A stretch of DNA of 27,882 nt from Candidatus Thorarchaeota archaeon (GTDB lineage Archaea > Asgardarchaeota > Thorarchaeia > Thorarchaeales > Thorarchaeaceae), in the NCBI GenBank assembly GCA_011364905.1, contig RDNZ01000039.1, forward strand, positions 1-27,882, in the 5' to 3' direction. Each line of letters starts with the position of its first letter. The stretch's first letter is position 1. Under the pieces are notes generated by a model. It saw only the letters and a program-made list of their open reading frames with translations. It was not told the DNA's origin and searched no databases. A program made the translations under genes and the position numbers. This document shows, piece after piece, positions 4,830 through 25,970 of this stretch.

Positions 4830-5420
4830 CTAGTCACAGTCGTTGCTTGTAGGTTGCATGCACTTTTCCTTTAGCTCGGTTCGTCCTATGACTAGCCGCA
4901 CTAGTCCATTGGCAAAAAGGGCGATGACAAGGAGAATTAACATCGCGGAAACACCAACATTTGGAAATATGAAAACAAAAGCCGCTAGGTTGACCGTAAG
5001 GATGCCTACAAGCACTTGCAACATTTGAATCCAAATTGGTACGTTTCTGATTAGTAGACCCAACACCAATCTTGAAGTTCCTACCATTAGCATTGCTATT
5101 GCTGGATAGAGTATTAGCAGCTCAGGATTAAGCGAGAGAAATATGAAGTCGATGAGTGATATGATAATGGCAACTAATCCTGTGACAAACATGAACAGCC
5201 TGGCATATTTGTTGTCACGAAGGATATAGACACTCCAGAGAATCCATGCTATACCCATTGTTATTAGTCCTAGGGAAAGTACTTCAAATGCGTAAGCAAA
5301 ACTAATTGTAAGTTCCAATACTGCAATTATTGCTACAACTATGACGATGATACCTATTGCATCGTCGAGCAAATCAATCCAAGATGATTCTTGCTTCCCA
5401 CTCATAAGAAAATAGCTCAA
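4830..5420 (-). CDS. HdeD/DUF308-like multi-pass membrane protein (ATG start at 5405 possible)
   Basis: Six hydrophobic segments in a duplicated three-helix pattern, with G-x-x-R-L-V motifs (GTSRLVLG, GLVRLVIG) typical of DUF308 repeats. Confidence 0.55.
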   Translation of the reverse strand: MSYFLMSGKQESSWIDLLDDAIGIIVIVVAIIAVLELTISFAYAFEVLSLGLITMGIAWILWSVYILRDNKYARLFMFVTGLVAIIISLIDFIFLSLNPELLILYPAIAMLMVGTSRLVLGLLIRNVPIWIQMLQVLVGILTVNLAAFVFIFPNVGVSAMLILLVIALFANGLVRLVIGRTELKEKCMQPTSNDCD

Positions 5421-5444: not shown

Positions 5445-6101
5445 TTAGAGTTGAATCTTCTTGTAGGCATCAGGAATCCTGATTCCTGTCTTGCCAGCGA
5501 AAACATCTCTCAGTAGTTCAACGTGCTCATCAAGATCCTTGAGTAATTTGTCTCTAGCATGCTGTTCGATGTTTGGTTCAATACCCCAAATCGTGAGGTA
5601 ATTACTGACGACACCAATATCAACTGCGCCTTCTTCAAAATCCCTGAAGATTGTGAGTTTGACAAGAAACTCTGCTTCATACATATTCAATATGTCACGC
5701 ACACTGATCATGATTAAATCAAGGAATCCTATTAGGTCCTCAAGCTCTTGTGTGTCTTGGAGATTCCCACGCATGGTCTCAGTCAGTGTCTGAATCTTTG
5801 AGGATGTGTGACGAAGATTCTCAAACATGTGCATCAGTTTTGTGAACTCTCTGATGGAGGTTTCAAGAGCTGGCACAAGCTTGTCGTATAGGGTGACTAG
5901 GAGGATACCTTTCGCATTCTCTCGTATGTTCTGAAAACTATCAAGTTTCCCTAGAGGACCATCTAGATGCTCAATTTGCATGATAGTGTTTGTCACTGCC
6001 TGAATGGCTTTAACCGACTTCCTTTGGATATTTGCCCATTTCTCGACAAAGGTGTCGAGCCCCTCGCGAAGGTCGTCAAGCGTATCTAGGTAGTGTGCCA
6101 T
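5445..6101 (-). CDS. All-helical protein with CINP/C1orf109-like motifs (putative eukaryotic signature protein)
   Basis: 218-aa soluble ORF. The C-terminal MYEAEFLVKLTI...NYLTIWGIEPNIE resembles the CINP motif MYxxELLLKxTV...YLSxWxxQPYVE as I recall it; N-terminal FVEKW helix. Confidence 0.65.
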   Translation of the reverse strand: MAHYLDTLDDLREGLDTFVEKWANIQRKSVKAIQAVTNTIMQIEHLDGPLGKLDSFQNIRENAKGILLVTLYDKLVPALETSIREFTKLMHMFENLRHTSSKIQTLTETMRGNLQDTQELEDLIGFLDLIMISVRDILNMYEAEFLVKLTIFRDFEEGAVDIGVVSNYLTIWGIEPNIEQHARDKLLKDLDEHVELLRDVFAGKTGIRIPDAYKKIQL

Positions 6102-6206
6102 TATATTCCACCAGCTTCTTCATTTTCTGCCATATAAGACATTCTGCGGGGGCACATTTTCCAGAAATGTTCAAAATAGAACATTTTCCGGAGCGATTCA
6201 GAGTTG

Positions 6207-6740
6207 CTATATCAGCTTCAAAAGGTCACTCCTAGTGATGATTCCCTGAAGTCGTCCTTGGGTCATTATCAGGACAGCTTGATATCTCTCAAAAAGCGGA
6301 ATTATGACATCGACAGATGTATTCTCATCAACTATGATCGTACCGCCGAGACTCATAACTGATTGTACAGAAATTTCCCGGAGATTGTGTTTGAGATTTC
6401 GAATGACGTCCCATTCAGTGATAATTCCCAAAATCTGAGTGCCTCGCACCACCGGCAGCTGTGAATATCCATGTTTCTGCATTAAAGTCACTGCGAGTGA
6501 AACGGTATCACGTGCATCAACAGTGACAGGCGCTAGCGTCATGATTTCCGAGCAAACCTTACTGCTACTTTTTGTTAGGACTTCTACGACTTTCCTTACT
6601 AGAGAGAGTTTGGGGTCAAGTGAGCCATTCTCAAGTCTAGCTATATACGACTGTGAAACTCCCACCTGATTAGCAAGTTCAGCCTGTGTAAATCCCTTGC
6701 TTAATCGCAATCGTCGGATATCGTCAGATGTGAGAATCAT
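6207..6740 (-). CDS. XRE-family HTH transcriptional regulator with C-terminal CBS pair (COG3620-like)
   Basis: N-terminal IRRLRLSKGFTQAELANQVGVSQSYIARLENG (Cro/XRE HTH); two CBS motifs (YSQLPVV...LGIITEWD; GIITRSDLL). Confidence 0.92.
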   Translation of the reverse strand: MILTSDDIRRLRLSKGFTQAELANQVGVSQSYIARLENGSLDPKLSLVRKVVEVLTKSSSKVCSEIMTLAPVTVDARDTVSLAVTLMQKHGYSQLPVVRGTQILGIITEWDVIRNLKHNLREISVQSVMSLGGTIIVDENTSVDVIIPLFERYQAVLIMTQGRLQGIITRSDLLKLI

Positions 6741-6765: not shown

Positions 6766-6866
6766 AAAATATTTGTCTTTGATGATTGTAGGTCATATTT
6801 TTGTCACTTAACATAAGCTATAAATGGACTTCGAAACGCGGCCGTGGAAAAGATGAGTTGATTATA

Positions 6867-8066
6867 ATGAATTTGAAAGTCACACGTGGAGCTGGACCTC
6901 CTGTTGAGAAGCTCCCAGTAGAGATTGTTGAGAGGAAAGGGAAAGGTCACCCTGATACTCTATGTGACAAAGCTGCTGAGGAGTTGTCAGTTAGGTTAAG
7001 CGAGTATTATATGGAAGTTTTCGGCCAGGTCCAACATCATAATGTGGACAAAGTCCTGCTTGTTGGAGGGCAATCCAATGCTAAATTCGGCGGCGGGGAT
7101 GTTATCGAACCCATTTACATTCTGATGAGTGGGCGAGCAGTCGATGTTGTTGACAAGGATTACGAGCGAATCGTTCCTGTTGGCAAGTTTGCTGTCGAAC
7201 ATACTAGAGACTGGTTGAGCAAGGACCTTCCTCACCTCGATGTGAACTCTGATGTGATCATCGACTACAAAATCAGAGCTGGAAGTACAGATCTGGTCGG
7301 CAACTTCGACCTTGAGAGAGATGTACCAAGAGCTAACGATACAAGCTTTGGCGTCGGTTATGCCCCACTGTCACCGACCGAGTTAATCACTCTTGAGTCC
7401 GAGCAACTTCTGAACAGCGAGAAAGTCAAGAAGGAGTGGCCACAGATCGGCGAGGACATAAAGATCATGGGAACAAGGATTGATAACAAGATTCACGTCC
7501 AAGTTGCCTCAGCTATAATCTCCAGTGAAACAAAGGATGCAGATGAATATGCCAATGTCATGCAGGGAATCTGTGATATGTTAGGAGACCTAGCAACAAA
7601 AATCACTGATTTAGAAACTGAAATCAGCGTCAATACTGCAGACAGCCCTGAAGATGGTCTGTTTTACCTCACAGTCACTGGCACATCAGCTGAGCATGGA
7701 GATGATGGACAGGTGGGTAGAGGGAATCGTGCTAACGGTCTAATCACTCCATATAGACCAATGACACTCGAGGCGGCTGGCGGTAAGAACCCAGTATCAC
7801 ATGTTGGCAAGACATACAATGTGGCAGCGAGAGAGATAACTGAGCGGGTCTACAAGGAGCATCCGGATCTCTCACAGGTCTACTGTTACCTTGTAAGCCA
7901 GATTGGTGCGCCTATCACTGAGCCAAAGGCTGTCAATGTCGAGCTTTTCGGAGACTGCGACATCGACAAAGTCAGATCATCAGTTGAGTCAATTACAGAG
8001 GAAGTCATTGCCAAGCTCCCACGAGTCTGGGAGGGCTTTGTCAAGCGGCAATATCAACTCTGGTAG
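6867..8066 (+). CDS. mat: Archaeal-type S-adenosylmethionine synthetase (methionine adenosyltransferase)
   Basis: Motifs [50 protein letters not shown] and [17 protein letters not shown] 6867 is preferred over the upstream TTG at 6801. Confidence 0.96.
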
Positions 8067-17804: not shown

Positions 17805-18686
17805 ATGGCCGACGCGATAGAGTGGAGTAACGCCAGTCCTGATCACATTGTTTGGCGTTATCCAGATAATAGGATTAAATGGGGTTCGCAACTCATAGTT
17901 ATGGAAAACCAAGCCGCTATCTTCTATAGAGATGGCAAGGCTTTGGACACATTCCTTGCTGGTCGTCACAAGTTGACCACGAGTAGTATGCCTGGGCTTG
18001 TAGGGTGGTTGCAGAAGAAGGTCAAGGGCGATGTCTTTGAAGCCACTTGTATCTTTATTTCACGCTCACAATTTCAAGGCAAGTACGGCGGAAGAGGCCA
18101 GACTAGTGACTTAGCCCCCTTGATGTTCCATGGCAATTTCTGGTTCAGAGTCAAAGAGCCAAAAATCTTCACGAACGAAGTAGTCAGTAATCAAAACGCC
18201 TTCTCAACGAAGAAGGTCAATGATTTTCTACGCTCTTTCATGAACGAACAGATAATTGACGAATTTGCACACTACGATCTTCAGGCAGTTTTCACTCAGC
18301 TTGATGAGACCTCCTTAAAGGTTAAGACGAAGGTTCGAATGAATTTTGAGAGGATTGGTCTTGAGCTTGTGGACTTGAAGTTCGAAGGCATTGACACTAC
18401 AGAGAAGTACAGAGAGCGACTCTTCTTCATGAAAACTGGTGGGGTCAGTGGGCAACAGCTCATGGGCGCTGAAACAATGAAGGAATCCGCGGAGTCCCTT
18501 GGAAAGAGTCCGGGTGCTGGATTTGGCGCAGGTATGGGCTTTATGGGTGTCATGGGTCAGCAGATGCAAGGTGGCGGACAACAGGGACCAGCTGCAACTC
18601 CAGCGGGTGCTAAGTTCTGCGCAAACTGTGGAACAGCACTAGAGGGTGCCAAGTTCTGTCCGAACTGTGGCTCTAAAGTAGGATAA
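17805..18686 (+). CDS. SPFH/band 7 domain protein (YdjI/COG4260-like) with C-terminal double zinc ribbon
   Basis: IVWRYP...GSQLIVMENQAAIFYRDGK...GRHKLTT N-terminus, Gly/Met-rich linker (GAGFGAGMGFMG), then CANCG...KFCPNCG. Confidence 0.9.
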   Translation: MADAIEWSNASPDHIVWRYPDNRIKWGSQLIVMENQAAIFYRDGKALDTFLAGRHKLTTSSMPGLVGWLQKKVKGDVFEATCIFISRSQFQGKYGGRGQTSDLAPLMFHGNFWFRVKEPKIFTNEVVSNQNAFSTKKVNDFLRSFMNEQIIDEFAHYDLQAVFTQLDETSLKVKTKVRMNFERIGLELVDLKFEGIDTTEKYRERLFFMKTGGVSGQQLMGAETMKESAESLGKSPGAGFGAGMGFMGVMGQQMQGGGQQGPAATPAGAKFCANCGTALEGAKFCPNCGSKVG

Positions 18687-18815: not shown

Positions 18816-20756
18816 ATGAGAATAGGGAAGATTGTCAAGAGAATTTCCAAACAGGATATTAGCAAGATGCGAAATGAATCCAGCTATCAAGTTTCATCGG
18901 ATGCAGCTGTAGTTTCTAGTAGGGCACACAAGAAGAGTATTGGATCCTTCTACACGCCTGAGCCTCTTGCTAACCTGATAGCACACGATACAATATTCGC
19001 TTGGCTATCAAAGAAAGCAAATAGACCACTTCAGAGCCTTGAGGAAATTGAAGAACTACGACCCGTCAAGAAAGAGCAGCTTCTTAATGTGACAAGAAAC
19101 ATTTCAATTCTTGATCCTGCAGTTGGAGATGGCGTTTTTTTACTGGCCGCAGGGGAGTGGCTTGAAAAGATACAGGTCGCGTTAGATGACGATGCCACGC
19201 CGAAGGAGCTAAGAAATCATATAGTCAGACAGTGCCTCTTCGGAGTTGATCTCTCAAATCATGCTGTTAAATTATGCAACCAGAAATTGAAACAATGGGG
19301 AAACTGTCTATCATCAAGCATATTGTCCAATCTGAAAGTTGGAAATAGTCTTGTTGGTTTTGTTGGCTTGAATAACCAGATTGAATCAACCCAAGCTAAA
19401 CTAGACAACAGGCTTTTCGGATTGCTGAGTACTGAAAAGTCATCTGAGATTCTGGACGACCTCATAAACGCAAAACCACTGCATTGGTCCCTTGCTTTTC
19501 CTGAAATATTCTCGAATTCATCTCCAGGATTTGATGTGATTCTTGCAAATCCCCCCTATGGAAGCATTCTTAGACCCATTGAGAGAAAGCACATTTCAAT
19601 AGTCTTTGATTTTTCCGTTGGAGGAAGTCGAGAAGGTACATGGAACAGTGCCGCACATTTTCTCGTTAGAGCAGTTTCTTTAATGAAGGAAGGTGCAGAG
19701 CTAGGTTTTCTAGTTCCTAATAGCTTCCTTCGTGTAAAACAATTCTCAAAGATTAGAAACTATCTCCTGAATTACACAAATCTTTGGAAAATAGTGGATG
19801 AAGGTAGTCCATTTGCAGATGTCACGCTTGAAATGGTAAGTATTTTCAGCGAAAAAATAACTGCTCCAAGAAACCACGAAATCGTGATTGAGTCTCGGCG
19901 ACCAGGACTAGAACAGTCAAATGTCGTGTCTTCAAGTGTGTTCAGAAAAAGTCGGATCTTTTCGATATATCATGACCACATAATGGATAAAATAATCCAG
20001 AGAGGGGAGAAACACCTTCTGGTTGCGAGAAGGGGCAGGGACATACCAAAGAAGCATGTAAGAAAATCGAAATCAGAAGAATTCATGACACCATACATAA
20101 CCAGTGGCAGAAGCGTCAGGAGATATGCATTGAATCATATGCATGTTTTCTATAGCGATGATTGGTACAAGCAGGACACGCGTTTACGAGAGTCGTTTGA
20201 GCATGAGTTTCTCGTTGCCACAAAGAACTACAGATTTCCTCGATGTGTGCTTAAGCCCAAAGGAGTGATTCATGGAGGAGGCATAGTTAATATCACACCG
20301 CTCTATGAGGGAGCAGATCTACATGTTCTTGGTTTAATCCTGAACTCGAAACTTGTCAGGCAGATATCAATACGATACCTCACAAACTACTCCCAGCTCA
20401 CATGCTGTTTGAACACAGGAATGATGGAAGACCTGCCTCTGGTCTTGCCCAACCGGAAACAGGTGTACAGAGATGTTTTCGATACATTAAGCCATCTTTA
20501 TTCACATAAGATTGAACCGGCGAAGATGGAAAACATCCCAATTCTAGAAAGACTGGCTGATGCCCTTGTGTATTCATTGTATTTTGGTGACGATTCCCTT
20601 GAAGAAAAAGTAAGCGAAGAAAAAATGGATGTTGTAACTATTGCTCAAAAACCAGACGTTGTCAACATGATCAATAAAATCATGAATGAGAATACAGTTC
20701 TGGAACTGGAGCAATTTGGGAGTTTTCCTCCATCTAGAAAAACTCGTAGATACTGA
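18816..20756 (+). CDS. N6-adenine (gamma-class, TaqI/Eco57I-like) DNA methyltransferase with C-terminal target recognition domain (start possibly ATG 18867)
   Basis: Motif X GSFYTP, motif I ILDPAVGDGVFL, LFGVD, GNSL, motif IV ILANPPY, GFLVPNSFL; C-terminal LGLILNSKL typical of a TaqI-like TRD. Confidence 0.9.
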   Translation: MRIGKIVKRISKQDISKMRNESSYQVSSDAAVVSSRAHKKSIGSFYTPEPLANLIAHDTIFAWLSKKANRPLQSLEEIEELRPVKKEQLLNVTRNISILDPAVGDGVFLLAAGEWLEKIQVALDDDATPKELRNHIVRQCLFGVDLSNHAVKLCNQKLKQWGNCLSSSILSNLKVGNSLVGFVGLNNQIESTQAKLDNRLFGLLSTEKSSEILDDLINAKPLHWSLAFPEIFSNSSPGFDVILANPPYGSILRPIERKHISIVFDFSVGGSREGTWNSAAHFLVRAVSLMKEGAELGFLVPNSFLRVKQFSKIRNYLLNYTNLWKIVDEGSPFADVTLEMVSIFSEKITAPRNHEIVIESRRPGLEQSNVVSSSVFRKSRIFSIYHDHIMDKIIQRGEKHLLVARRGRDIPKKHVRKSKSEEFMTPYITSGRSVRRYALNHMHVFYSDDWYKQDTRLRESFEHEFLVATKNYRFPRCVLKPKGVIHGGGIVNITPLYEGADLHVLGLILNSKLVRQISIRYLTNYSQLTCCLNTGMMEDLPLVLPNRKQVYRDVFDTLSHLYSHKIEPAKMENIPILERLADALVYSLYFGDDSLEEKVSEEKMDVVTIAQKPDVVNMINKIMNENTVLELEQFGSFPPSRKTRRY

Positions 20757-20796: not shown

Positions 20797-21411
20797 ATGG
20801 ACGAAGATGGCGCTGACTCTGATGATATGGCTGAGGACCTAGTAGATGCGGTGGATGAAGAAGCGGATGACGAGGTGGTAGATGACGGGCTCACAACCAA
20901 GGAGCGAGAGATTGAGGTCAGTCGAGAAACCGAACGTCATAAGAAGGCACAAGAACTAAGGAAACAGTTGAGAAAACGCCAGTTAGGCATACTCACATAT
21001 CGATGGCCTGCCATTACGCTGATTTTGGGAGGAGCACTCGCAATATCAACTGAATTCCTAAAAGTAATGACCCGCGAAGCAGGAGTTCCTCCGGAGGTCG
21101 GATTTAATACATTTCCAGATGCATTTGTTCGAACAGGTGGTGTTGTGTATCTGTTCCCTCTGATCGCAGGAGTGTTTATGGTAGTCTTGAGCTATTTCTC
21201 ATATAGAAATCCGAGATATACCTGGCTCGCTCTCATTCCAGCAGCTTTGATGGGTATGTCTGGGGGAACAGTATTATTTCTCACTAGTTTCGCAGTTACT
21301 GTAGATCCATCTTTGGAAGGATTGATTTATCCAAGCCCTACTGTATTTTCCATGTTCATTGCAGCAGTGATTGCACTTCTTGCTATAGCTCTAAAAGAGA
21401 AAGAAGGCTAA
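20797..21411 (+). CDS. Hypothetical membrane protein with acidic N-terminal tail, basic helix and about 4 TM segments
   Basis: D/E-rich first 30 aa, K/R-rich helix, then four hydrophobic segments; TTAAATAT box upstream (about 20760). Confidence 0.75.
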   Translation: MDEDGADSDDMAEDLVDAVDEEADDEVVDDGLTTKEREIEVSRETERHKKAQELRKQLRKRQLGILTYRWPAITLILGGALAISTEFLKVMTREAGVPPEVGFNTFPDAFVRTGGVVYLFPLIAGVFMVVLSYFSYRNPRYTWLALIPAALMGMSGGTVLFLTSFAVTVDPSLEGLIYPSPTVFSMFIAAVIALLAIALKEKEG

Positions 21412-21977
21412 TCAGTAAGGAACTCGTCAAGACGCCCTTGTTCCTCTAACATTGCCATCCAGTCTATTCGATGTGGCGATGATCCGTCCTTCATAATCTT
21501 TTCAATTATCTCTACAGCGTCAGGTGCGCTGATTTCGGTTGTGTCGATTTCGAATACTCGTTCTTCTCCGAATGCTTCGAGTGCATCCATCTGGCAGACT
21601 CCAATAACCTCAGCCTCAACATTCTCCGTGACCTTTCCCTTTGAGTACTTACGCTCAGTCAATCGAGTTCTGAGCTGTTCAGGGTGGGTCCGAAGAATGA
21701 AGACCCATTGAACAGACGAGCTAGGCACCAGATCGATGTAATGTCCTTCGATAACCATCCTCTTGCTTTTGTCATCAGTGAGATCCAGAAGAGCATCAAC
21801 GAGACAGTCCTCATTAATAATTCCGGTTTTTCGAGCTTTGTCTTCTGCGGTGATGCATCCCGACTCATCTGCAAAGTCTCCGAGGGCAACGACTTCTACA
21901 CTAAGCTTGCTCCCCAGAATCTTTGCCACTTTTGTTTTGCCAGTCGCGGGAGAGCCTCCAATAAGTATAACAGACAT
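21408..21977 (-). CDS. Adenylate kinase 6 / Fap7 (hCINAP)-family P-loop kinase
   Basis: GSPATGKT Walker A, VIEGH (hhhxGH signature), LRTHPEQLRTRL...YSKGKVTENVEAE, EIDTT. Start at ATG 21977. Confidence 0.9.
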   Translation of the reverse strand: MSVILIGGSPATGKTKVAKILGSKLSVEVVALGDFADESGCITAEDKARKTGIINEDCLVDALLDLTDDKSKRMVIEGHYIDLVPSSSVQWVFILRTHPEQLRTRLTERKYSKGKVTENVEAEVIGVCQMDALEAFGEERVFEIDTTEISAPDAVEIIEKIMKDGSSPHRIDWMAMLEEQGRLDEFLTD

Positions 21978-22077
21978 GCGAGATTTTCGAACCATTCTAA
22001 AGATAAGCTTTGAGAATGAGCTAAGTTGGTCCGGTGCATAAGCAATAAAAGATGTATGAAGTTGCTCTATAACAGCC

Positions 22078-22584
22078 ATGAATCAACCGTTTACTCTTCG
22101 CAAATTTGAGCCTGACGACCTAAAGCAGGTAGTTTCAATAAATGAGAGATGCCTACCGGAGAATTATCCAGATCAATTCTTCATGGGGCTGCATTACCAT
22201 GCGCCAGATGCATTCTATGTTGCGCAAAATGACGGAGAGATAATTGGATACATCATGTGCCGAGTTGAAAGGGGCATCTCTGGATTTGGAAGGATGCCAG
22301 TGAAGAAAGGGCATATTGTTTCTGTTGCAGTTCTTGGAACGATGAGGAATAAGGGAGTTGGAACTGCACTAGTCAACGCTGGGATGGAGGGTATGATGGG
22401 TTATGGGGCTAGTGAATTTTTCCTAGAGGTCAGAAAGACAAACGAAGAAGCTATTGCTGTCTATGAGAAACTAGGTTATACTGTACGTCGCGTTCTACGA
22501 GGCTACTATCGAGATGGAGAAGACGCTTATCTGATGGTCAAGAGGGTAGAGAGTGAACCTGAGGAAGGAAACGTAGATGAGTGA
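22078..22584 (+). CDS. N-alpha-acetyltransferase, Ard1/Naa10 (RimI-like GNAT)
   Basis: INERCLPENY, GYIMCRVE, KGHIVSVAV...RNKGVG, LEVRKTN, YYRDGEDAYLM. Confidence 0.92.
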   Translation: MNQPFTLRKFEPDDLKQVVSINERCLPENYPDQFFMGLHYHAPDAFYVAQNDGEIIGYIMCRVERGISGFGRMPVKKGHIVSVAVLGTMRNKGVGTALVNAGMEGMMGYGASEFFLEVRKTNEEAIAVYEKLGYTVRRVLRGYYRDGEDAYLMVKRVESEPEEGNVDE

Positions 22585-25289: not shown

Positions 25290-25970
25290 ATGTCAGAAGG
25301 CTCTGAACCACCAAAAAAAGAAAAAAAAGATGCTGAAAAACCAGCTGAACCCACTATTGAAGAGATTGTAGCTCTATTGACGAATATCGCAGGCGTGGGT
25401 CCAAAGACTGCAGAGAAACTCGCTGCTGCAGGCTATGACACACTTGAGAAGGTCGTGGATGCAGATAAAGAAGCATTGGCTGCAGCAGTCGCAGGCCTGA
25501 GTGTAGCGAAGGCAGAGGCGACAATTGCAGAGGCGGCTGACCTTCTTGAAAAGGTGAATTCTGGAGCCATAGATCTGAGTGGGAAATCAAAGTCGAAGAG
25601 GAAGAAAGCTCCCGAGCCAGAACCTGATAGGCATGAGCTAGAACCCATAAAAGCCGTTGCAAGGGCTGAAGAACGAAAACGACTTGTGACAGGCTATGAG
25701 AAAGAAAAACTGGCAATGGGTATCCCTGTTGGTCCGAAATGGCTGACAAAGTTCGAAAAGGCTCGAATCATCGGCGCAAGGGCACTTCAAATTTCTATGG
25801 GAGCCCCAGTGTTGATTGATATGAAGACTGCACCCAAAGGACGATTCGGATTCGCCGAGGCGGAGCTTCGGGCAGGAGTTTTACCTATGACTGTTCGAAG
25901 GACTCTTCCCACTGGGGAGAGCTATGACATTGCCTTGTCAATTCTCTTGAAGAATACGAGGTTGGACTAA
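25290..25970 (+). CDS. rpo6: RNA polymerase subunit Rpo6 (K / RPB6 / omega family) with N-terminal helix-hairpin-helix domain
   Basis: C-terminal [22 protein letters not shown]...[21 protein letters not shown]; N-terminal [17 protein letters not shown]...[10 protein letters not shown] (HhH)2. Confidence 0.9.

Follow-up and report, generated by a model that had tools for sequence, protein, structure and literature searches.

[quoted passage not shown] Yeast, to our knowledge, possesses neither protein, and the two were therefore long regarded as late additions. The structures of CINP and C1orf109 are very similar, and the two proteins are probably related (Ni et al. 2022, PMC9004343). In the human complex, 55LCC, they form T-shaped heterodimers in which C1orf109 makes a hydrophobic contact with CINP through the loop that links its helices 1 and 2 (PMC12019325). 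The N-domains of the SPATA5 and SPATA5L1 ATPases bind the heterodimer junction and its sides, with SPATA5 R84 contacting CINP E147 (PMC12019325), and the lid subunits together form a funnel above the pore, which is why they are thought to be the substrate adaptors of SPATA5/SPATA5L1 (PMC11055677, PMC12019325). One of these studies also describes direct contact between human CINP and the pre-60S particle, through GTPBP4 and ES27A (PMC12019325); CINP itself was initially characterized as a factor in replication and checkpoints (PMC12962969). Plants possess the OPENER complex, in which OPNR corresponds to C1orf109 and OAP1 to CINP, together with CIP111 and CDC48D (PMC12332008), and the lid system is thus old within eukaryotes.

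An archaeal branch of this family has been described as well. Köstlbacher and co-workers found that, among prokaryotes, CINP homologues are confined to five major Asgard clades (10.1101/2024.07.03.601958; PMC12962969; bioRxiv July 2024, Nat Microbiol March 2026), and in their tree eukaryotic CINP is monophyletic and sister to Hodarchaeales with a UFBoot support of 99% (PMC12962969). The main text of that work discusses neither C1orf109, nor copy number, nor an ATPase partner. The gene that we describe here, from a Thorarchaeota genome, was recognized as a candidate CINP/C1orf109 homologue in an initial annotation that also raised the question of prior Asgard reports; the recognition was correct, but such a report exists, and the homology to CINP, which places the origin of the lid before eukaryotes, is already known. 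Here, we examine this locus with respect to copy number, likeness to C1orf109, and possible ATPase partners.

The CINP-like gene and its conserved motifs

The analysed stretch of DNA, hereafter the window, spans 27,882 nucleotides and belongs to a Thorarchaeota metagenome-assembled genome (MAG) of 3.08 Mb in 95 contigs that is 80.8% complete. The CINP-like gene and the candidate signals upstream of it are located as follows:

5445–6101, minus strand: CINP-like coding sequence, 218 aa (P0001), stop codon included; supported by the open reading frame and its translation, homologues, the family profile, and the structural model
6108–6112, minus strand: GGTGG, candidate Shine-Dalgarno-like sequence, 6 nt 5′ of the ATG; read from the sequence only
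6132–6137: TTATAT, possible TATA box, 31–36 bases before the ATG of the CINP-like gene

The reading frame is intact and runs over 218 codons from an ATG at 6101 to a TAA at 5445–5447; a stop codon upstream of this ATG makes a longer in-frame start impossible. Residues 18–38 of the encoded protein read FVEKWANIQRKSVKAIQAVTN, residues 50–61 LGKLDSFQNIRE, residues 137–151 ILNMYEAEFLVKLTI, and residues 167–179 NYLTIWGIEPNIE. The protein had initially been presented as a 218-aa all-helical polypeptide bearing a set of quoted strings, and this description stands: the frame is intact, every string is present, and the AlphaFold2 model is all-helical. Upstream of the gene, GGTGG is a Shine-Dalgarno-like candidate; alternatively, TTATAT could be the TATA box for a near-leaderless mRNA, and the two readings are mutually exclusive.

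A word-indexed search returned 142 homologue clusters at 64–99% identity, all of them from Thorarchaeota-type MAGs and nearly all 218–220 aa in length, with Candidatus Thorarchaeota archaeon SMTZ1-45 (92% identity) as the closest named relative. Approximately 12 further full-length distant relatives, at 20–34% identity and from MAGs labelled as Asgardarchaeia, Promethearchaeota, and Hodarchaeota, came from an exhaustive HMMER search over 1.84 billion representatives. This search returned no eukaryotic sequences at E ≤ 1e-3, and one with the family profile likewise yielded Asgard clusters only among the 120 matches listed. By six-frame scanning, the gene was detected in 128 of 400 Asgard genomes. 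Some Asgard families carry it almost throughout (79/85, 21/22, 17/19, 5/5, and 2/2 genomes), and others lack it entirely (0/135, 0/31, 0/14, 0/12, and 0/12 genomes). Among the 128 positive genomes it is practically always single-copy, the few double matches being fragments. Querying our own, 80.8%-complete genome with the family profile and with the Pfam family PF15011 revealed no second CINP-like or PF15011 locus, and in five genomes from other Asgard families the sole PF15011 match over the cut-off was the CINP-like locus itself. No fused or longer forms of the protein were found, in a search that we rate as weak evidence. The 142 close Thorarchaeota homologues and the presence in 128 of 400 Asgard genomes identify the frame as a real gene and not a chance open reading frame; it represents the Asgard CINP-like family in Thorarchaeia and was inherited vertically.

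Conservation of motifs was scored on 26 sequences drawn from at least seven Asgard families. The elements that bear on the comparison with CINP and C1orf109 are the following:

6036–6038, minus strand: codon for W22 in helix 1, invariant in the 26 Asgard homologues and aligned with the W of human CINP ‘LILKWETL’
5934–5954, minus strand: loop ‘LGKLDSF’ between helices 1 and 2, residues 50–56, placed by the alignments and the secondary structure of the model
5652–5684, minus strand: MYEAEFLVKLT in helix 3, residues 140–150, aligned with human CINP ‘MYRKELLLKRT’
5565–5600, minus strand: motif YLTIWGIEPNIE, residues 168–179, aligned with human CINP ‘YLSMWLHQPYVE’

The LGKLxxF consensus is the most conserved N-terminal segment, with L53 conserved at 90% or above in the first alignment, A1. 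Within the helix 3 motif, two residues, M140 and E142, never vary; position 141 is occupied by Y or F, position 144 mostly by E, and position 148 by K or R. In the C-terminal motif, conservation reaches 90% or above for W172 and E175 across the Asgard alignments and is complete for P176 in alignment A1. The initial annotation had made its reading depend on conservation of the MY..E-K and YL..W-P positions among archaeal homologues, and in the 26 Asgard sequences these positions are indeed invariant or nearly so. By analogy with the human heterodimer, we infer that the conserved loop between helices 1 and 2 may be functionally equivalent to the corresponding loop of C1orf109.

Homology to CINP and C1orf109

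When the single protein sequence was queried against the PDB using phmmer, four human CINP chains were placed at the top with E-values of 0.02–0.04. Distant single members of the family, including Hodarchaeal-type sequences, matched CINP weakly (E 0.04–0.5) and left C1orf109 unmatched. A profile built from 15 Asgard homologues matched CINP at E 9e-10 (41 bits), and a profile built from 26 homologues representing at least seven families did so at E 1.5e-10 (44 bits). Both profile matches extend over nearly the full length of either protein, pairing profile positions 6–187 with CINP residues ~22–198, and the match of the larger profile includes ~175 aligned residues; the identity between the CINP-like protein and human CINP is 17–19%. 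In the HMMER alignments, the human CINP chains read ‘...LILKWETLNDAGFTTANNIAN...’ and ‘LLEMYRKELLLKRTV...SYLSMWLHQPYVE’; the strings that the initial annotation gave for human CINP were correct and align with the CINP-like protein in the way that it set out.

The AlphaFold2 model, generated from a 15-row alignment (pLDDT 88.1, pTM 0.82), is organized entirely into helices comprising residues 2–45, 59–112, 118–157, 162–174, and 180–201. The comparison proposed at the outset, an AlphaFold model searched by Foldseek, returned CINP (TM 0.64/0.73) and C1orf109 (TM 0.62/0.66) as the best natural matches in the PDB, and a VIA-align superposition on full-length CINP (8cih_A) gave Z 16.1 with an rmsd of 3.3 Å over 182 residues. 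An exhaustive comparison with 48,161 representative PDB chains, carried out independently of Foldseek, placed CINP first, with Z 14.8, and C1orf109, taken from the CINP-C1orf109 crystal, second, with Z 13.8 over 185 residues.

The background for helical bundles is high in such comparisons, with de novo designs reaching Z 12–13.7 against the model, so that the fold alone is no proof of homology. An unrelated helical bundle, resembling CINP through helical composition and chance, would agree with this background, with the ESM Atlas shape search, which gave generic helical bundles only (for example, an ABC2 membrane protein and GldL_N), and with the weak E-values obtained from the single sequence. 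Such a coincidence is nonetheless very improbable, given a profile E-value of 1.5e-10 sustained over ~175 residues, with the W, MY.xE, and YL..W...P..E positions in register, the ranking of CINP and C1orf109 as first and second among 48,161 chains, and the agreement with independently published structure and tree work (PMC12962969). It is the combination of the fold with the profile E-value that makes the homology convincing. The proposed homology to CINP was thereby borne out by profile, fold, and conserved motifs alike, and the CINP-like protein is very probably a homologue of eukaryotic CINP and a more distant one of C1orf109/AIRIM.

The likeness to C1orf109 is carried by other data. Pfam PF15011 (CA109-like), which represents the C1orf109 family, has a gathering cut-off of 27 bits; the CINP-like protein of the window falls short of it at 22.6 bits (E 1e-4). 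Across the family, PF15011 matches 13 of 15 members, and the non-Thorarchaeial members score 35–54.5 bits, values to be read with the possibility in mind that the seed already includes CINP-like or Asgard sequences. A 99%-identical sequence and many Thorarchaeial homologues carry precomputed PF15011.13 matches, and the nearest neighbours of the CINP-like protein by protein language model are eukaryotic C1orf109 clusters, with a score of 0.93. The link to C1orf109, for which the initial annotation had pointed to a C1orf109 segment given there as ‘LRAFPDLKE’, is supported by the highest of these PF15011 scores and by the second-ranked structural match.

The occurrence of both CINP-like and C1orf109-like signals in one gene, present in a single copy per genome, makes it most likely that the gene predates the split between the two lid subunits. 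With moderate confidence, we take it to represent the state before the eukaryotic CINP/C1orf109 duplication. The single pre-duplication gene envisaged initially is thus upheld as to copy number and as to one locus bearing both likenesses, and it is not proven as an ancestor. A different reading, in which the gene is the orthologue of one eukaryotic protein only (CINP, as published, or C1orf109) and the other eukaryotic protein has a separate origin, appears improbable to us. In its favour, the Asgard profile matches human CINP at 44 bits, whereas its direct match to human C1orf109 is insignificant (15 bits and E 0.12 for the 26-sequence profile, E 0.12–0.5 over both profiles), and in the published tree the family figures as CINP; for C1orf109 as the sole counterpart, the Pfam and language-model features point in that direction. 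Yet both signals emanate from the same single gene, and no genome possesses two copies. Moreover, CINP and C1orf109 share the five-helix fold and have been judged related (Ni et al. 2022, PMC9004343), and the same model retrieves them as its two best structural matches.

Genomic context and candidate ATPase partners

The neighbours of the CINP-like gene encode an HTH-CBS regulator, a SAM synthetase, a P-type ATPase, an Na+/H+ exchanger, and a small membrane protein. Those immediately flanking the gene are:

6207–6740, minus strand: regulator with an XRE-type HTH and a CBS pair, divergent from the SAM synthetase
6801–8066, plus strand: archaeal SAM synthetase
4830–5420, minus strand: multi-pass membrane protein, 196 aa, without a Pfam match; begins 24 bp past the stop codon of the CINP-like gene, on the same strand

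The order of the SAM synthetase gene, the divergent HTH-CBS gene, and the CINP-like gene downstream of the latter is kept in most Thorarchaeial genera, in which the HTH-CBS proteins are 45–61% identical. In three other Asgard lineages, neither this gene order nor a nearby AAA gene was found. We read the arrangement as inherited synteny with no functional link. The membrane protein gene looks like a local insertion, since tblastn recovered it at 0 of 30 Thorarchaeial loci. The initial annotation had noted no AAA ATPase in the window, and the neighbourhood survey found no AAA gene close to the CINP-like gene.

Several further features of these neighbourhoods were recorded. In the Asgardarchaeia MAG GCA_054384735.1 (loci L019/L020), a gene for RNase HII directly follows the CINP-like gene, PolB is encoded ~4 kb away, and genes for a MetRS-like synthetase, an Arf-like GTPase, and a homologue of the PAC2 proteasome assembly chaperone are near; a MetRS-like gene is also close to the CINP-like orthologue at another locus (L017). 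Within the window, a single plus-strand frame at 25290–25970 joins a helix-hairpin-helix region (HHH_5, residues 29–84) to an Rpo6 core (RNA_pol_Rpb6, residues 150–196). An N6-adenine DNA methylase of the Eco57I type, akin to type IIG restriction-modification proteins, is encoded at 18816–20756 on the plus strand and adjoins a Band-7/SPFH protein with a zinc ribbon (17805–18686). A 223-aa AAA_18 protein is encoded at 21408–22079 on the minus strand and has no evident tie to the CINP-like gene; the Pfam family AAA_18 includes Fap7/adenylate kinase 6, a maturation factor of the small ribosomal subunit.

We next consider the ATPases that such a lid could serve. Our own assembly encodes one Cdc48 (P0160, Cdc48-A), and complete Thorarchaeial genomes encode two; the second paralogue of the complete genomes (P0161 type, Cdc48-B), ~42% identical in the N-domain, is missing from our 80.8%-complete assembly. 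Cdc48-A scores 833 bits with VAT, ~656 bits with p97, and 620 bits with SPATA5, and the corresponding values for Cdc48-B are 811, ~705, and 586 bits. By these sequence scores, both Thorarchaeial paralogues look like generic VAT/p97-like ATPases and are not demonstrably AFG2-like. Every Asgard genome possesses at least two CDC48_N genes, with or without the CINP-like gene, and among 131 near-complete Asgard genomes no pattern connects the number of CDC48_N genes with the presence of the CINP-like gene. As Thorarchaeial genomes have only the minimal two CDC48_N genes, no dedicated AFG2-like paralogue tracks the CINP-like gene.

In four Thorarchaeial genomes, the second Cdc48 gene shares a contig with the CINP-like gene at a distance of 43–75 kb (contigs G362:C5, G336:C3, G383:C1, and G313:C1; loci L081, L075, L080, and L074). 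This distance exceeds that expected of an operon, and the shared location probably reflects conserved synteny of the region. Matches to the Cdc48 N-domain were also observed in frames of 1241 and 1236 aa (G075:C9:116416–116964 and G397:C47:3860–4111), compared with the usual 730–750 aa; these may be fused or read-through genes.

A search of our own genome (80.8% complete) for a counterpart of Rlp24, the placeholder with a threadable C-terminal tail that is the known substrate in eukaryotes, found none. The genome encodes one eL24, in a 67-aa frame, and its only other match to PF01246, a weak one at 18 bits, corresponds to a TRASH zinc finger within an ArsR-like protein. With no Rlp24-type placeholder in the genome, the substrate cannot be the eukaryotic one. 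A complex in which the N-domain of Cdc48-A (residues 1–190) was combined with a pair of CINP-like chains, modelled from alignments A1 (CINP-like) and A2, gave ipSAE values of 0.08 and 0.02 against a mark of 0.32; with three chains the model lies outside the calibration of the tool, and we weigh it neither for nor against binding. The initial proposal that the protein serves as an adaptor for an archaeal Cdc48/AFG2-like ATPase thus drew no genomic support from gene neighbours, fusions, co-occurrence with Cdc48, or an Rlp24 substrate.

Taken together, a model for the CINP-like protein can be put forward. The protein is a five-helix bundle of ~215 aa and very probably an Asgard relative of the 55LCC/OPENER lid subunits CINP and C1orf109/AIRIM. 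The bundle would self-associate via the conserved loop between helices 1 and 2 and a C-terminal MYExE / YLxxWxxEP surface, and it would then select substrates as an adaptor that occupies the N-domain ring of a double-ring unfoldase of the Cdc48/VAT type; the lid would presumably be a homo-oligomer, standing in for the eukaryotic heterodimer. By analogy with the human complex, we infer that the LGKLxxF loop and the C-terminal motifs are candidate interfaces. The placement of the protein on the N-domain ring as a substrate-selecting adaptor, likewise argued from the eukaryotic machines, is in our view the likeliest mechanism, but a doubtful one. The composite account, in which a CINP/C1orf109 homologue in its pre-duplication state acts as a Cdc48 lid adaptor, is the best overall explanation available to us, and we offer it tentatively.

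The main rival to this proto-55LCC adaptor is a true CINP/C1orf109 homologue that operates without an AAA+ ATPase, perhaps as a free-standing helical scaffold for large ribosomal subunits or for proteins of replication and repair. Were this so, the SPATA5-type link would be a eukaryotic invention. The lack of any genomic, fusion, or co-occurrence tie to Cdc48 and of an Rlp24 substrate in the genome is consistent with such a scaffold, as are the direct contacts of human CINP with pre-60S (PMC12019325), the original description of CINP as a replication and checkpoint factor (PMC12962969), and the proximity of RNase HII and PolB in one Asgardarchaeia MAG. That neighbourhood, however, is confined to a single lineage. 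In humans and plants, moreover, the family constitutes a constitutive lid on ATPase N-domains (PMC11055677, PMC12019325, PMC12332008), which suggests that lid and ATPase were already partners in the last eukaryotic common ancestor, if not earlier. We consider the ATPase-free scaffold somewhat unlikely.

Returning to the Cdc48-lid adaptor, its most far-reaching version holds that the CINP-like gene is the direct ancestor of both lid subunits, that its product was already a homo-oligomeric lid on the Cdc48 N-domains, and that the eukaryotic heteromer emerged by parallel duplication of lid and motor. We regard this version as distinctly unlikely. If it is true, adaptor-guided, ubiquitin-independent unfolding of ribosomal or replisome clients predates eukaryotes. 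More generally, should one gene have given rise to both lid subunits and its product work with an archaeal Cdc48, a Cdc48-family system of substrate-selecting adaptors would have been inherited from archaea, and a simple, homomeric version of the lid would become usable for biochemistry.

Comparison with known lid proteins and complexes

The Asgard CINPL proteins of Köstlbacher and co-workers and the protein described here belong to the same family: among prokaryotes it is restricted to Asgard archaea, its distribution is patchy, and its members are full-length CINP-like proteins of ~200–240 aa. Our scan of 400 genomes across the phylum yields the same picture of its distribution.

The similarity between the Thorarchaeial protein and human CINP (8cih, 9gwj_B, 8rhn_C, 9lgo_J) encompasses the five-helix bundle, a similar length, and the shared W of helix 1, MY.xE...K.T, and YL..W...P..E. 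Human CINP differs in pairing with its paralogue C1orf109, and its docking via GTPBP4 and ES27A is a eukaryotic feature. The residues corresponding to the Asgard glutamates E142 and E175, invariant or nearly so in the archaeal family, are R and Q in human CINP. The SPATA5-contacting E147 of human CINP aligns with I132 or M131 of the Thorarchaeial protein, an alignment reading that is uncertain. Human C1orf109/AIRIM (9gwj_A/C, 8rhn_A/B) possesses the same fold (Z 13.8 over 185 aa against the model), and the loop between helices 1 and 2 that binds CINP in C1orf109 is conserved in the Asgard family.

Relative to the 55LCC and OPENER complexes, the Thorarchaeial genome possesses one lid gene rather than two or three, and in place of two paralogous lid subunits we found one gene per genome in the 128 positive Asgard genomes. 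By sequence score, the Thorarchaeial ATPases look VAT/p97-like and are not demonstrably AFG2-like, and the genome is without an Rlp24 placeholder. In common with these complexes, the Thorarchaeial genome encodes a homologue of the lid subunits together with Cdc48-family double-ring ATPases that bear N-domains.
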